The position numbers are program-made. A stretch of 64,000 nucleotides of DNA from Escherichia coli O157:H7 (GTDB taxonomy: Bacteria > Pseudomonadota > Gammaproteobacteria > Enterobacterales > Enterobacteriaceae), in assembly GCF_013167455.1 (NCBI RefSeq), contig NZ_CP038328.1; one strand, 5' to 3'. Positions 3,001 through 12,000 of the stretch are shown one piece after another; position 1 is the stretch's first letter; the number at the start of each line of letters is the position of its first letter.

Positions 3001-6000
3001 GCAGACCGGTGTACGCCATATCAAGGAAGTTTTTATCCTTATCCCCAAGAAAAACAGCAAGTCCACGCTGGCTGCCGGGATCATGATGACGGCGCTGTTA
3101 CTGAACTGGCGGCAGGCGGCGGGCTACACCATTCTGGCCCCGACCGTGGAGGTGGCGGCTAACGCCTTCAACCCTGCCAGGGATATGGTACGACGGGACG
3201 ATGATCTGGATGACCTCTGTCAGGTGCAGACACATATCCGGACCATCACCCACAGGGTGACGGACACCACCCTGAAGGTGGTGGCTGCCGATCCGAATAC
3301 GGTATCCGGTATCAAGTCCGTGGGGACGCTGATTGATGAACTGTGGTTATTTGGCAAGCAGTACAAAGCGGAGGACATGTTACGTGAAGCCATAGGCGGC
3401 CTTGCCTCCCGCCCGGAAGGGTTTGTGGTGTATACGACCACCCAGTCGAATGAGCCGCCAGCCGGGGTGTTCAGACAGAAACTGCAGTACGCCCGGGATG
3501 TCCGTGACGGCAAAATTCATGATCCGCACTTTCTGCCGGTGATTTTTGAGCATCCTCCTGAAATGGTGGAAAGCGGGGCTCACCTGCTGATGGAAAACCT
3601 CGCCATGGTTAACCCGAATCTCGGTTATTCGGTGGATGAGGCTTTTCTGTACCGGGAGTACCGTAAAGCCCGGGAGGCTGGTGAGGAAGCATTTCGTGGC
3701 TTCATGTCAAAACATGCCAATGTGGAAATTGGTCTTGCCCTGCGTTCTGACCGCTGGGCGGGTGCGGATTTCTGGGAGCAGCAGGGCAGGCGCGTCAGCC
3801 TGGACGATATCCTGCAGCGCGCTGATGTGGTGACGGTGGGGATTGACGGCGGGGGCCTGGATGATCTGCTGGGAATGTACGTGATTGGCCGTGACAGGGA
3901 AACCCGCGAATGGCTGGGCTGGGGCCATGCCTGGGCGCATGAAACCGCGGTGGTCCGACGGAAGAGCGAGGCGTCCCGGTTTCAGGATCTTGTTGCCTGT
4001 GGAGATATGACCATTGTCCGGCGTGTCGGGGATGACACGGCGGAAGTGGCGGAATATGTGCGTCGCATTCATGAGGCTGAGTTACTGGACCATATCGGTA
4101 TTGACCCGTCAGGGGTGGGGCAGATTCTGGATTCACTGGCGGAAGCCGGGATCCCCGACGGAATTGTGGTGGGGATAAGCCAGGGCTGGAAACTGGGCGG
4201 GGCCATTAAAACCACCGAGCGCAAACTGGCTGAAGGGGTGCTGGTGCATGGTGACCAGCCCCTGATGGCCTGGTGTGTCGGCAATGCCCGGGTGGAGCCT
4301 AAAGGTAACGCCATTCTTATCACCAAACAGGCCAGTGGACGGGGAAAAATTGACCCGCTGATGGCGCTGTTCAATGCGGTCTCCCTGATGTCCCTTAACC
4401 CGGAACCGAAAAAGAAAGAATATGCGGTTTTTTTCATATAACCCTGTTCACACTGTAACCATCATGAACCGCTGCGGCGGTTTTTTTATTTTCAGGAGGC
4501 TGATGTGACTCTTAAACGGGCCTGTTCCCTGCTGACGGTGAAATCCTTCAGTGAGGATGAACGGGTGATCACCGGGATTGCGTCAACGCCTTCTCCGGAT
4601 CGGGATGGTGACATCCTGGAGCCGGAGGGCGCGGAGTTTGGCAGTGCGATCCCGTTTCTCTGGCAGCATGACCATTCCCGCCCGGTGGGGCAGTGTACGG
4701 TGCGCCGGGTCAGCGAAGGGCTGGAAATCACGGCAACACTGGTGAAGCCCGTACCGGATATGCCGTCGCAACTGGCTGCCCGGCTGGATGAGGTCTGGGC
4801 GGCCATTAAGACCGGGCTGGTCAGGGGGCTGTCCGTGGGCTTCCGTCCCCATGAATACACCTTTCTGGACGGAGGCGGACTGCATTTTCTGCGCTGGGAA
4901 CTGATGGAGGTGTCTGCCGTCACCGTGCCCGCGAATGCGGAATGCACCATCCGGACCATTAAATCTTACGACCGCCCGTTTTCTGCCGCGTCCGGCAACC
5001 GGAAACCGGTGGTGAAAATCGCATCTTCTGCCGGCGCTGCGGCACAGTCAACAACCGTTTTTCATAAGGAAAAGACCATAATGAATATTGGCGAACAGAT
5101 TAAAAGTTTTGAAAACAAGCGTGCAGCGCTGGCAGCCTCCCTTGAGGAGGTCATGACCAAAGCCGCAGAGGAAGGGCGCACGCTGGATGTGGAGGAGGAA
5201 GAGCATTACGACAACACCGCAGCGGAAATCCGTCAGGTGGATGCGCACCTGAAGCGCCTGCGTGAACTGGAAGCCGGTAAGGCCGCCACGGCGCAGCCGG
5301 TGAAACAGGCCGGTAACGGGAATGTGGCCGCGGTGGCTTCTGCGCCGGTGATCCGTGTGGAGCAGAAACTGGATAAGGGGATTGGCTTCGCCCGCTTTGC
5401 CAAATCGCTGGCTGCGGCTAAAGGCGTCCGATCTGAAGCCCTGGAAGTGGCCCGTCGTCAGTATCCGGATGACAGTCGTCTGCATCATGTCCTGAAATCG
5501 GCAGTGGGCGCGGGGACCACCACGGATCCGCAGTGGGCAGGCAGCCTGTCTGAATATCAGGAATACGCACAGGACTTTATTGATTACCTGCGTCCGCAGA
5601 CCATTATCGGGCGATTTGGTCAGGGCGGGATCCCTGCACTTCGTCAGGTGCCATTCAATATCCGTGTGCACGCCCAGGTGTCCGGCGGTGCTGCCGGCTG
5701 GGTGGGTGAGGGTAAGGCAAAACCCCTGACGAAGTTTGATTTTGAATCCATCACCTTCAGTCATGCGAAGGTGTCGGCCATTGCGGTACTGACGGAAGAA
5801 TTGATCCGTTTTTCCAGTCCGGCTGCTGATGCACTGGTCCGTAATGCGCTGGCGGAAGCGGTGGTGGCGCGTCTGGATACAGACTTTGTGGACCCGAAAA
5901 AAGCCGCAGTGGCAGATGTCTCCCCGGCGTCCATCACCCATGATGTGAAGGGCACGGCATCAACCGGTAACCCGGATGCGGATGCCGAGGCTGCGTTTGG

Positions 6001-9000: not shown

Positions 9001-12000
9001 TCTCTGTGGTGGTCCGGCAGAGCAGTGGCCAGCGTACGGAAAAAACATTTTCCCTGCCGGTGATGCTCTACCGTGGTGTGTTCAGAATCGGCGAAACTTA
9101 CCACCCCGGCGATACGGTGACGTGGGGGGCTCGTTGTGGCACTGCAACAGTATGACCGGTGATAAGCCCGGAGAAGCTCATTCATCAGGCTGGACTCTGG
9201 CTGCAAAACGTGGGCGGGATGCAGGAGGTGGAAAGTGACAGCATTACTGACACTGGAAGAAATCAAGGCACATCTGCGTGTTGACCATGACGCGGATGAT
9301 GAGATGCTGATGGACAAGGTTCGTCAGGCTACCGCCGTGCTGCTGGCCTACATCCAGGGCAGCCGGGATAAAGTGATTAGTGAGGACGGTGAGCTGATCC
9401 CGGGTGAGGCATTAACCCGGATGAAGGGGGCTGCCATGCGACTGACCGGGATGCTGTACCGGAATCCGGATCTTGCTGAGCGGGAAGACCTCGTGCAGGG
9501 GGAACTGCCGTTTTCTGTTTCCGTGCTGATTTACGATTTGCGTTGTCCGACGGTGTTATGAGGAGGGGGAATGGCAATATCTGCAGGTCGTCTGACACAG
9601 ATGATCAGTGTTCTGAACCCGGTGTTAACCCGTAATGCTGCCGGAGAAATGACGGAAGAATGGGTGTCATGCGGGAAAATTCATGCGGATATCCGGGGCA
9701 GGAGCAGCCGGGAGCGGATGCAGTCCGGTGCGGAAATGGCGCAGGCGGAAATCCGCATCTGGGTACGCGGTCAGTCTGGTCGTGAAATCACGGCGGCGTC
9801 ACGACTTCATGTGCTGAGTGGTCCCTGGCGTGACCATGTCCTGAATGTCGTCGGGGTCCCGGTTCCGGATGCAACCGGCGGGCGTCTGGAAATTCTCTGT
9901 CGGCTGGGAGGGGAAAAATGATCGAAACCCTGCTGGATTTTTCGGGGCTGGAGGACATCAGCCGCGATTTGCAGCTTCTGAGTGGTGCGGAAAATAACCG
10001 GGTGCTGCGTGAGGCAACCCGTGCGGGTGCGAATGTGCTGAAAGAAGAAGTGGTGTCACGGGCACCGGTACGCAGGGGAAAACTTCGCCGCAATGTGGTG
10101 GTCCTTTCCCGGTGCTCCCGCGATGGCGGGATGGAATCCGGTGTGCATATCCGGGGTGTTAATCCGGACACCGGTAACAGCGATAACACCATGAAGGCGG
10201 ATAACCCGCGCAATGCTTTCTACTGGCGGTTTGTGGAAATGGGGACCGTGAATATGCCACCGCACCCGTTTGTGCGCCCGGCATTTGATGTGCGCAGTGA
10301 ACAGGCGGCACAGGTGGCGATTGCGCGGATGAACCGGGCCATTGATGAGGTACTGAGACGATGACGGAGGCGGATTTGTATCCTCATCTGGCGCATCTTG
10401 CCGGCGGGCAGGTGTACCCGTATGTGGTCCCCCTGCTGGATGGCAGGCCGTCGGTGGCGCTTCCGTGGGTGGTTTTCAGCCTGATTTCATCGGTGTCAGC
10501 GGACGTGATGGGCGGGCAGGCGGAGTCCTCAGTGTCGGTGCAGATAGACGTTTATGCCGGGACTGTGACGCAGGCGCGTCAGATACGTCAGGACGCCCGT
10601 GAAGCCATAATGCTGCTGGCCCCGGGATCCGTCAGTGAAATGCAGGACTATATTCCGGAAAACCGCTGTTACCGTGCAACCCTGGAGTTTCAGGTCACGG
10701 TGTGACTTTTTCTTTTTTCTACAAAACCCATACCCCGCCGCGTGCGGGTTTTTTATTATCAGGAGGCAGAATGTCTGCTTTGTATGAACGCTCACAGCTG
10801 ACGCAGGTGATGATTTCATCTGCCCCGGCGACTGCTGAAACTATGGATAAGGCGGAATATCTGCGCCTGGACTGCACCATCAAGGAAGTGCAGTTCACCG
10901 CCGGGCAGAAACAGGATATTGATGTGACCACGCTCTGCTCCACAGAGCAGGAGAACATCAATGGTCTGGGGGCGTCGTCTGAGATTTCCATGTCGGGCAA
11001 TTTTTATCTGAATCAGGCCCAGAACGCCCTGCGTGATGCCTATGACAATGACGCGTTGTATGCGTTTAAGGTGCTGTTTCCGTCCGGTAAGGGCTTTAAA
11101 TTCCTGGCGGAAGTGCGCCAGCACACCTGGTCATCCGGTACCAACGGCGTGGTGGCTGCAACGTTCTCACTGCGTCTGAAAGGCAAACCGGTGTCCTTTG
11201 TGGTACCGCTGGCGTTTGTGAAAAATCTGGATAAGACACTTACCGTGAATACCGGTGCGCTGCTGACAATGTCAGTCAGTGCCAACGGGGGAACGCCGCC
11301 GTATAAATACGCCTGGAAGAAGGATGGTCAGCCGGTTGACGGGCAGACGACAGACACCTTCAGTAAGCCAGGTGCGCAGTCCGCTGATGCGGGGAAATAT
11401 ACCTGTGTGGTGACCGATTCGGCAGAGAAAGCACAGAGTGTGACGTCTGTTGAATGCACCGTGACAGTGAGCGCTGCCGCCGGATAAGGGGATGGGTCAT
11501 CATGAAAAAGGATCTGAAAACGCTGGCGCTGGCCAGACTGTCAGGGTTTCGTCATAAAACGGTGAAGGTGCCGGAATGGGGTAATGTCAGCGTGGTGCTG
11601 CGGGAGCCTTCGGCAGAGGCCTGGTATCTGTGGCAGGAAGTGCTCAATGGTGATGGAGAGGATGACGATACCCTGTCGGTGGTGGCGAAAACCCGCCGTA
11701 ACCTGGAAGCGGATGTGACGCTGTTCTGCGATGTCCTGTGTGATACGGACCTGCAGCGGGTGTTCACTCCGGACGACCGTGAGCAGGTGCTGGCCGTCTA
11801 TGGTCCGGTACATGCCCGGTTGCTGCGTCAGGCACTGGAACTGATCGCTGATGCAGAGTCGGCCAGAAAAAAGTAGCCCGCCCGGAAATTCGCTTTCTGA
11901 TGCGACTTGCGCTCCGTCTGGGGCGCACCTTATCCGAACTGCGCCACAGCCTGAGTGCGAGCGAGGCGATGATGTGGATGGAGTTCGACAGGATATCCCC

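Follow-up and report, generated by a model that had tools for sequence, protein, structure and literature searches.

The DNA considered here is a window of 64,000 nucleotides (the whole stretch that was analysed, with positions counted from its first letter) from Escherichia coli O157:H7 (RefSeq assembly GCF_013167455.1, contig NZ_CP038328.1), and the element under study is a group of prophage head genes near its 5' end. At the center of this group is a single open reading frame (ORF) of 645 amino acids (aa) that joins a prohead protease to the major capsid protein; it is preceded by the genes for the small and large terminase subunits (TerS and TerL) and followed by an ORF of 833 aa that carries the portal protein. 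Both the E. coli O157:H7 Sakai genome, in a stretch annotated as 'prophage Sp6; lambda-like phage', and many further O157 genomes match bases 4400-9300 with 100% identity; Shiga toxin (Stx)-converting siphoviruses such as YYZ-2008, 2851 and Stx2a_WGPS6 match the same bases with 96-99.5% identity. Of 5426 complete E. coli genomes, 1255 contain the segment, at a median of 6 places each. The genes of this Sp6 stretch form the core for head assembly in an HK97-like siphovirus module. Phage annotations and the protein family phrog_617 already record the fusion and its position, and sister lineages are represented in NCBIfam and in the naming of actinobacteriophage proteins. Two features are possibly new as judged from the comparisons below: a conserved start codon nested within the fusion gene, which has good in-silico support, and a fusion of the portal protein to a second protein that depends on the length of a run of G.

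The 645-aa ORF has exactly the coordinates of the initial annotation, and its reading as an N-terminal prohead protease with a C-terminal HK97-like capsid protein is borne out by agreement among Pfam, NCBIfam, the match to HK97 gp4, the catalytic residues and structure prediction. In the product, the Pfam profile Peptidase_S78 (PF04586) matches aa 48-152 with 34.7 bits (cutoff 21) and Phage_capsid (PF05065) matches aa 386-635 with 52.7 bits (cutoff 24.2), and the NCBIfam profile TIGR01554 (HK97-family major capsid protein) aligns through its positions 3-355 with aa 204-584 (78.3 bits, cutoff 27.5). Two findings had been named at the outset as speaking against a fusion, namely an N-terminal part that is not a protease and a frameshift that splits the ORF. 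The domain search places Peptidase_S78 above its cutoff, and the frame runs through all 645 residues with neither frameshift nor stop. The protease part is 29% identical to HK97 gp4 by BLASTP (E 4e-9). Ser110, in the motif GLSVGF, aligns with the serine of the gp4 motif GMSVGF, and His55 lies one residue off the aligned gp4 histidine; the catalytic residues of gp4 are His65 and Ser114, the latter being the counterpart of Ser110. Against the protease equivalog TIGR01543 the product scores 46.4 bits, below the cutoff of 59 for that profile. The reverse assignment, in which the 645-aa ORF would be the portal and the 833-aa ORF a ClpP-capsid fusion, is refuted by the Pfam and NCBIfam matches.

An AlphaFold (AF2) model of the product, computed from a 35-sequence alignment and having a mean confidence score (pLDDT) of 76, divides the protein into a folded protease (aa 1-141), a disordered segment (aa 142-191), a confident helical hairpin (aa 195-262), a second disordered segment (aa 265-284), three short helices (aa 293-332) and a shell domain (aa 350-642) with pLDDT mostly 80-95. 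Foldseek comparison of the shell domain with the PDB returns the capsid proteins of Bxb1, R4C, HK97 and D3 with E values of 6e-14 to 1e-10, and that of T5 too. Pairwise BLASTP of the capsid part against HK97 gp5 gave no significant match, and a sequence search of the PDB gave only a weak match to Bxb1 (E 0.002); the HK97 fold was assigned from profiles and structure prediction instead. The region between protease and shell was initially described as a coiled-coil linker. A helical segment does exist there, but the region consists of two parts, a disordered linker (aa 142-191) and the delta domain of the capsid (aa 193 to about 335), and the latter being part of the capsid protein accounts for the TIGR01554 alignment beginning at aa 204 with profile position 3. 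One ORF comprises an S78 protease, a flexible linker, the capsid's own delta domain and an HK97-fold shell (Table 1).

Table 1. Coordinates of the fusion gene, its parts and the neighboring features in the window
Feature	Position	Strand	Evidence or remark
Protease-linker-delta-capsid ORF, 645 aa, GTG start, Sakai ECs_1543	4505..6442	+	phrog_617 full-length match
Ribosome-binding site AGGAGG (4494-4499), 5-nt spacer (ctgat), GTG start (4505-4507)	4494..4507	+	Read from sequence; anti-Shine-Dalgarno duplex -10.3 kcal/mol
S78 prohead serine protease domain, aa 1-141	4505..4927	+	Pfam PF04586; His55 codon 4667-4669, Ser110 codon 4832-4834
Disordered hypervariable linker, aa 142-192	4928..5080	+	AF2 pLDDT <50 at aa 142-191; many gaps and substitutions in its alignment columns
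Candidate internal ribosome-binding site AAGGA (5066-5070), 10-nt spacer, ATG 5081-5083 (Met193)	5066..5083	+	Inferred from family conservation and split variants
Delta (scaffolding) domain, aa 193 to about 335 (end approximate)	5081..5509	+	AF2 secondary structure; TIGR01554 alignment from aa 204
HK97-fold shell domain, aa about 336 to 645 (confident fold from about 350)	5510..6439	+	Pfam Phage_capsid; Foldseek
Portal-X ORF, 833 aa	6654..9155	+	ORF listing
Portal proper, aa 1-450	6654..8003	+	TIGR01537 / Phage_portal
Portal/X junction: 6-G run (7999-8004), then ATG 8016-8018 (X start codon in relatives)	7999..8018	+	
Protein X	8016..9155	+	Homology to Salmonella 347-aa gene; AF2 model
Tandem array of a 162-bp (54-aa) unit inside X, 3.7 copies, 97% matching	8181..8773	+	Tandem Repeats Finder
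Sp6 G-run defect: 6 G (9124-9129) against 7 in eight relatives; premature stop 9153-9155	9124..9155	+	
TerS	2220-2783		Directly 5' of TerL
TerL, 553 aa	2780..4441	+	Pfam TerL_ATPase and TerL_nuclease; Sakai annotation terminase large subunit; adjoins the fusion gene on its 5' side
Terminator-like hairpin GAACCGC..GCGGTTT with T-run	4466..4492	+	Between TerL and fusion gene; consensus scan
Small ORF, 73 aa, phrog_829	6487..6708	+	Between capsid and portal genes; 55-nt overlap with portal start

The fusion is widespread and its protease well conserved. An exhaustive search of 1.84 billion cluster representatives gave 1181 relatives at E < 1e-30, and the best 150 of these are mostly full-length fusions of 630-680 aa with 38-56% identity. 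Among the best-150 representatives, His55 is kept in 144 of 144, Ser110 in 143 of 144, Glu135 in 142 of 143 and Ser137 in 143 of 143. As these residues are essentially invariant, the protease is under selection, and what the 645-aa ORF encodes is an active-looking S78 protease. ORFs of the same length (644-648 aa) are present in Salmonella, Enterobacter, Klebsiella, Serratia and Pantoea, copies that are 100% identical are present in many O157 genomes, and the family spans more than 100 clusters at 50% identity. Three database entries of 1079-1094 aa (P0001, P0123 and P0132) have TerL, whole or in part, joined to the fusion protein; these may be read-through gene calls or further fusions.

The portal domain lies in the ORF 3' of the fusion, as initially annotated, and this order is general. 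From IMG/VR, 80 related loci with 43-99% identity were collected, and TerL, the fusion, the portal and their neighbors were mapped by tblastn. In 78 loci with the fusion (not counting the Sakai duplicate of the window) a portal gene was located, and it stands 3' of the fusion in every one of them (78/78); TerL is 5' of the fusion or undetected by tblastn in 77 of the 78, the exception (L026) having a short weak TerL fragment 3' of the portal. Pseudomonas phage PAJU2 and the Salmonella and metagenomic contigs also have the order TerL-fusion-portal. A further case, more distant, is Burkholderia phage vB_FKKS2, which encodes protease (213 aa) and capsid (444 aa) in two genes. Since the order is kept across loci and phages, the position of the portal after the capsid is a stable trait of the lineage rather than a local rearrangement, and on the evidence of these loci the order TerL, protease-capsid, portal is a fixed trait of a large, old phage lineage.

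Several phages carry the same arrangement under various names. PAJU2 ORF003 (AP009624), annotated 'structural protein; prohead protease fused capsid protein', is 48% identical over its full length and has the same architecture, as do the fusions of YYZ-2008, 2851, BP-4795, Stx2a_WGPS6 and phi330 (Pankowvirus / Marienburgvirus), which are 95-99.8% identical; the protein is called 'putative major head protein/prohead proteinase' in YYZ-2008 and 'major head protein/prohead protease' in Stx2a_WGPS6. PAJU2 and the E. coli Stx phages share the order terminase, fusion, small ORFs, portal and a homologue of the protein here called X, although portal and X are separate genes in PAJU2 and BP-4795, in contrast to the truncated portal-X ORF of Sp6. 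Both PAJU2 and phi330 (PMC12502783) are isolated infectious phages that carry the fusion. The NCBIfam family NF045541 ('prohead protease/major capsid protein fusion protein') was considered as a home for the Sp6 protein and rejected, the score being 54 bits (aa 48-287) against a cutoff of 525; likewise the match to phrog_4523 is weak and partial (E 1.7e-11, aa 93-249), the Sp6 protein belonging to phrog_617. NF045541 and phrog_4523 are profiles of protease-capsid fusions of similar size (634-644 aa) and, by these profile scores, are separate lineages of the same idea; the actinobacteriophage proteins called 'major capsid and protease fusion' are likewise a sister idea. The Pfam scan at E <= 0.01 found no ClpP or S49 domain in the 645-aa product. 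Because the NF045541 cutoff was not reached and neither ClpP nor S49 was found, we place the Sp6 fusion in the PAJU2/Pankowvirus family. A 'prohead protease fusion' mentioned in a CBASS preprint was also considered; it is the protease-scaffold protein of phage Bas13 and is outside the family of the Sp6 fusion.

Comparison with better known head modules shows both kinship and rearrangement. HK97 has the same protease family and capsid fold, uses an N-terminal delta domain as scaffold, and has homologous portal, connector and gp10-like genes. Its gene order, however, is TerL, portal (gp3), protease (gp4, a separate protein of 225 aa) and capsid (gp5), whereas in Sp6 the protease is joined to the delta-capsid and the portal comes last. 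In Salmonella phage Gifsy-2 a single gene supplies protease, scaffold-like middle and capsid; its protease is ClpP-like (lambda C type) and, as in lambda, it comes after the portal. The Sp6 fusion has an S78 protease of HK97 type and stands before the portal. The Gifsy-2 gene goes under the name 'tripartite capsid gene' (Effantin et al. 2010, Virology 402:355, as cited in PMC8538268).

The junction between linker and delta domain has the features of a translation start. Met193 opens the sequence 'MNIGEQIKSFENKRAAL', which resembles the N-terminal end of a delta domain. Among the 145 informative sequences of the 150-representative alignment, the junction position is Met in 131 and Val in about 10 of the 14 that remain. 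At the DNA level the codon is ATG in 83 of 84 loci and GTG in one, and four further Val representatives for which DNA was retrieved all have GTG, so that each of the 5 Val cases with DNA is a GTG codon. Five representatives of 456-478 aa start exactly at the junction Met. Motifs of GGAGG, AGGAG or AAGGA type are located 6-11 nt 5' of the junction codon, and this Shine-Dalgarno (SD)-like core is kept while the codon register and the encoded residues vary (E-E-G, Q-E-G, L-E-G, K-G, K-E). For 44 loci less than 80% identical to each other, the mean anti-SD duplex energy is -7.8 kcal/mol at the junction compared with -2.65 kcal/mol at the 656 remaining in-frame ATGs of these ORFs; 48% of junction sites and 1.8% of the other ATGs reach -8 or below (Mann-Whitney p = 7e-20, a value inflated by the relatedness of the compared loci). 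Nor is the junction SD weaker than the best candidate found where each gene itself begins (mean -7.8 vs -6.3). Natural split loci occur in which an in-frame stop lies directly before the junction ATG (L035) or about 18 nt before it (L046). In the O157 lineage, and specific to it, both alternative frames have a TAA just 5' of ATG 5081 (at 5065-5067 and, within 'TAATG', at 5079-5081), and these codons look like the remains of a stop/start overlap between two once-separate genes. A nested in-frame pair is marked by an internal start that is conserved, shares the frame of the long ORF and has a ribosome-binding site; these marks are seen at the junction, and the gene probably gives two nested products, protease-delta-capsid and delta-capsid alone. 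A limited literature search found no description of internal initiation in S78-capsid fusions.

We consider it likely that the fusion ORF works through two nested products which co-assemble, with a protease dose fixed by the ratio of starts and with eventual self-removal of the protease. Ribosomes that initiate at GTG 4505 would make the full protease-delta-capsid polyprotein, and those that initiate at ATG 5081, 10 nt beyond the AAGGA motif, would make the delta-capsid alone; the two would co-assemble because they share the delta and shell domains. In HK97 the N-terminus of the delta domain faces the interior of the procapsid, and the protease is targeted to the prohead through its C-terminal part. 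As the delta end points inward, the Sp6 protease would be carried into the procapsid as a covalent passenger on a subset of subunits, in a dose set by the ratio of the two starts, and after assembly it would cut off itself, the linker and the delta domains to leave a mature shell protein of about 300-310 aa. The specific proposal that the protease sits on a minority of subunits, with targeting and dose achieved by two ribosome-binding sites instead of a docking peptide, is one that we favor with some reserve. The initial annotation had the fusion deliver protease and scaffold in cis with each capsid subunit. Delivery in cis is consistent with the single fused ORF, but 'each' is doubtful in view of the conserved internal start and SD-like motif at Met193.

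If every subunit were nevertheless a 645-aa polyprotein that brings protease and scaffold along in cis, the junction ATG with its SD-like motif would be a silent relic of separate genes. The uninterrupted ORF agrees with such an arrangement, as does the location of the strongest O157 ribosome-binding site at the gene start (-10.3 vs -6.2 kcal/mol), and a rough volume estimate (not a computed one) allows some 415 protease domains in a T=7 procapsid. However, in a linker that is hypervariable and full of indels, a relic would not be kept among lineages with identities as low as 38%. The junction accepts only ATG or GTG, as the GTG in all Val cases illustrates, with an SD-like core at the spacing of a start site, and fused and split forms interconvert with the capsid starting at the same codon. 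In view of the probable nested start, protease on every subunit is the less likely reading, and we regard it as improbable, if deserving of attention, for the family at large; it carries more weight in the O157 lineage, whose upstream site is stronger than the internal one. Besides the inflated p value, several points weigh against two nested products. The internal SD of the O157 copy is modest (AAGGA, 10-nt spacer, -6.2 kcal/mol) beside that of the gene start (-10.3), and in this lineage the long form could be dominant although its start is GTG. The conserved 'E-G' or 'K-G' residues could be kept for a reason at the protein level, such as a processing site. Lastly, both products, the ratio between them and the sites of cleavage are deduced from sequence.

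The same junction has been considered from two other angles. The pair of TAA codons just before ATG 5081 might suggest a programmed frameshift or termination near GTTTTTCAT (5057-5065) that releases free protease and leaves the capsid to be made only from Met193. This is very hard to credit and was rejected, as the zero frame at GTTTTTCAT has no canonical X XXY YYZ slippery heptamer and the motif is specific to the O157 lineage, with no conservation in relatives. Alternatively, the TAA codons, with their resemblance to the remains of a stop/start overlap, and the presence nearby of at least one lesion that looks inactivating (a deletion of 1 nt, by which the portal-X ORF of Sp6 is truncated) could be taken to mean that the fusion is a non-functional accident of frameshift or stop loss in a degenerate prophage. 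Family-wide conservation rules out such a product of prophage decay: a fusion of the same length is present in the 1255 E. coli genomes, in many genera and in the more than 100 clusters noted above, its catalytic residues are invariant and infectious phages carry it, so that an artefact is scarcely conceivable.

Two nested products would place the Sp6 family beside other systems that limit the dose of an assembly protease. Lambda C/Nu3 and Mu I/Z are nested in frame, with a long product that bears the protease and an abundant short product that has the same C-terminus. With herpesvirus UL26/UL26.5 they would have in common with the Sp6 family, if its inferred nesting is correct, one reading frame, a shared C-terminus and a low protease dose. 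In the lambda, Mu and herpesvirus cases the shared part is a separate scaffold protein, whereas in the Sp6 family it would be the capsid with its built-in scaffold. The herpesvirus protease-scaffold fusion is expressed about ten-fold less than the nested scaffold isoform (PMC11565193). The herpesvirus short form comes from its own transcript, while that of Sp6 would start at an internal ribosome-binding site. The nested start, if true, would be an independent bacterial-virus version of the dosing known from lambda C/Nu3 and UL26/UL26.5, with the capsid itself as carrier. More broadly, the protease-capsid family illustrates covalent linkage as one way for an HK97-type phage to get its protease into the capsid. 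The culturable phages phi330, 2851 and PAJU2 carry the module and make the nested start directly testable. The fusion as such is of little import, these being genes of a well-known O157 prophage. At present, annotation pipelines label the fusion ORF 'major capsid protein', 'prohead protease' or 'hypothetical' and the portal-X fusion 'portal', and a correct domain map would aid comparisons among Stx phages.

The ORF that follows the fusion was initially annotated as a single portal gene. A portal domain is indeed present, with TIGR01537 / Phage_portal matching aa 45-388 (349.5 bits, cutoff 112.05), but the 833-aa ORF is a composite of the portal and a different protein, X, which makes up the remaining 380 or so residues, and it is truncated in Sp6. 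A Salmonella relative has a stand-alone portal of 451 aa followed by a separate 347-aa gene X with an ATGA overlap. Residues 1-450 of the O157 ORF are 68% identical to this portal over its whole length, and residues 455-857 match X from its Met1 with 47% identity. Whether the two are joined depends on the G run at the junction. With 6 G (Sp6, YYZ-2008, 2851 and phi330) portal and X are in one frame, and with 5 G (three E. coli prophage contigs of IMG/VR and BP-4795) the portal ends at a TGA that overlaps the ATG of X; in phi330 a 2-nt insertion 5' of the junction gives separate portal and X genes again. A distinct lineage with about 60% identity to the O157 type has joined portal and X independently (L021 and L022, of 1096 and 1237 aa). 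X is conserved behind the portal throughout the family, and many distant loci have a homologue of it there, PAJU2 ORF007 among them. The recurrence of the fusion suggests a physical association of X with the portal.

In a model of X (from L007:9511-10731), a long helix at the N-terminus is followed by helix-loop repeats of low confidence, with the motif 'IPVPxDGxD', and by a C-terminal beta domain that is predicted with confidence. The copy number of the 162-bp unit varies between related phages, with X of 407 aa in L007 and 515 aa in L028. The beta domain gives sub-threshold matches to carbohydrate-binding module family 5/12 (CBM5/12, chitin-binding type) in Pfam, in a PDB profile search and in Foldseek, together with weak matches to parts of phage tail fibres. 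These weakly suggest a fibre-like protein, which would be an odd partner for the C-terminus of a portal. In Sp6 a 1-nt deletion in the second G run shifts the frame, replaces the last 29 or so residues and destroys the last CBM5/12-like unit. The intact portal-X form ends at a TGA that overlaps a GTG start at 9235, and that of Sp6 ends about 80 nt early with loss of this overlap; the frameshift at 9124 is probably one of the defects of the Sp6 prophage.

Genes for a head-tail connector, head closure and a gp10-like protein lie directly 3' of the portal ORF, from 9235 onwards. The hairpin between TerL and the fusion gene is to be regarded as terminator-like only, as terminator-like sites found by the consensus scan are overall no commoner than in shuffled sequence. 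A second, G+C-rich hairpin (GGGAGGC..GCCTCCC, without T-run) was seen by eye at 6459-6476, just 3' of the capsid stop codon, and the HK97 record has annotated putative terminators at positions comparable to the two hairpins. The 73-aa ORF between capsid and portal has homologues of 51-66% identity at the same position in enterobacterial relatives, and PAJU2 and vB_FKKS2 likewise have one or two small ORFs between these genes. The G+C content is about 0.57 in the head and tail module (2-16 kb) and falls, first to 0.48 (16-18 kb) and later to 0.39 (26-28 kb); this fall over positions 16000-28000 suggests mosaic cargo or the end of the prophage 3' of the tail genes.

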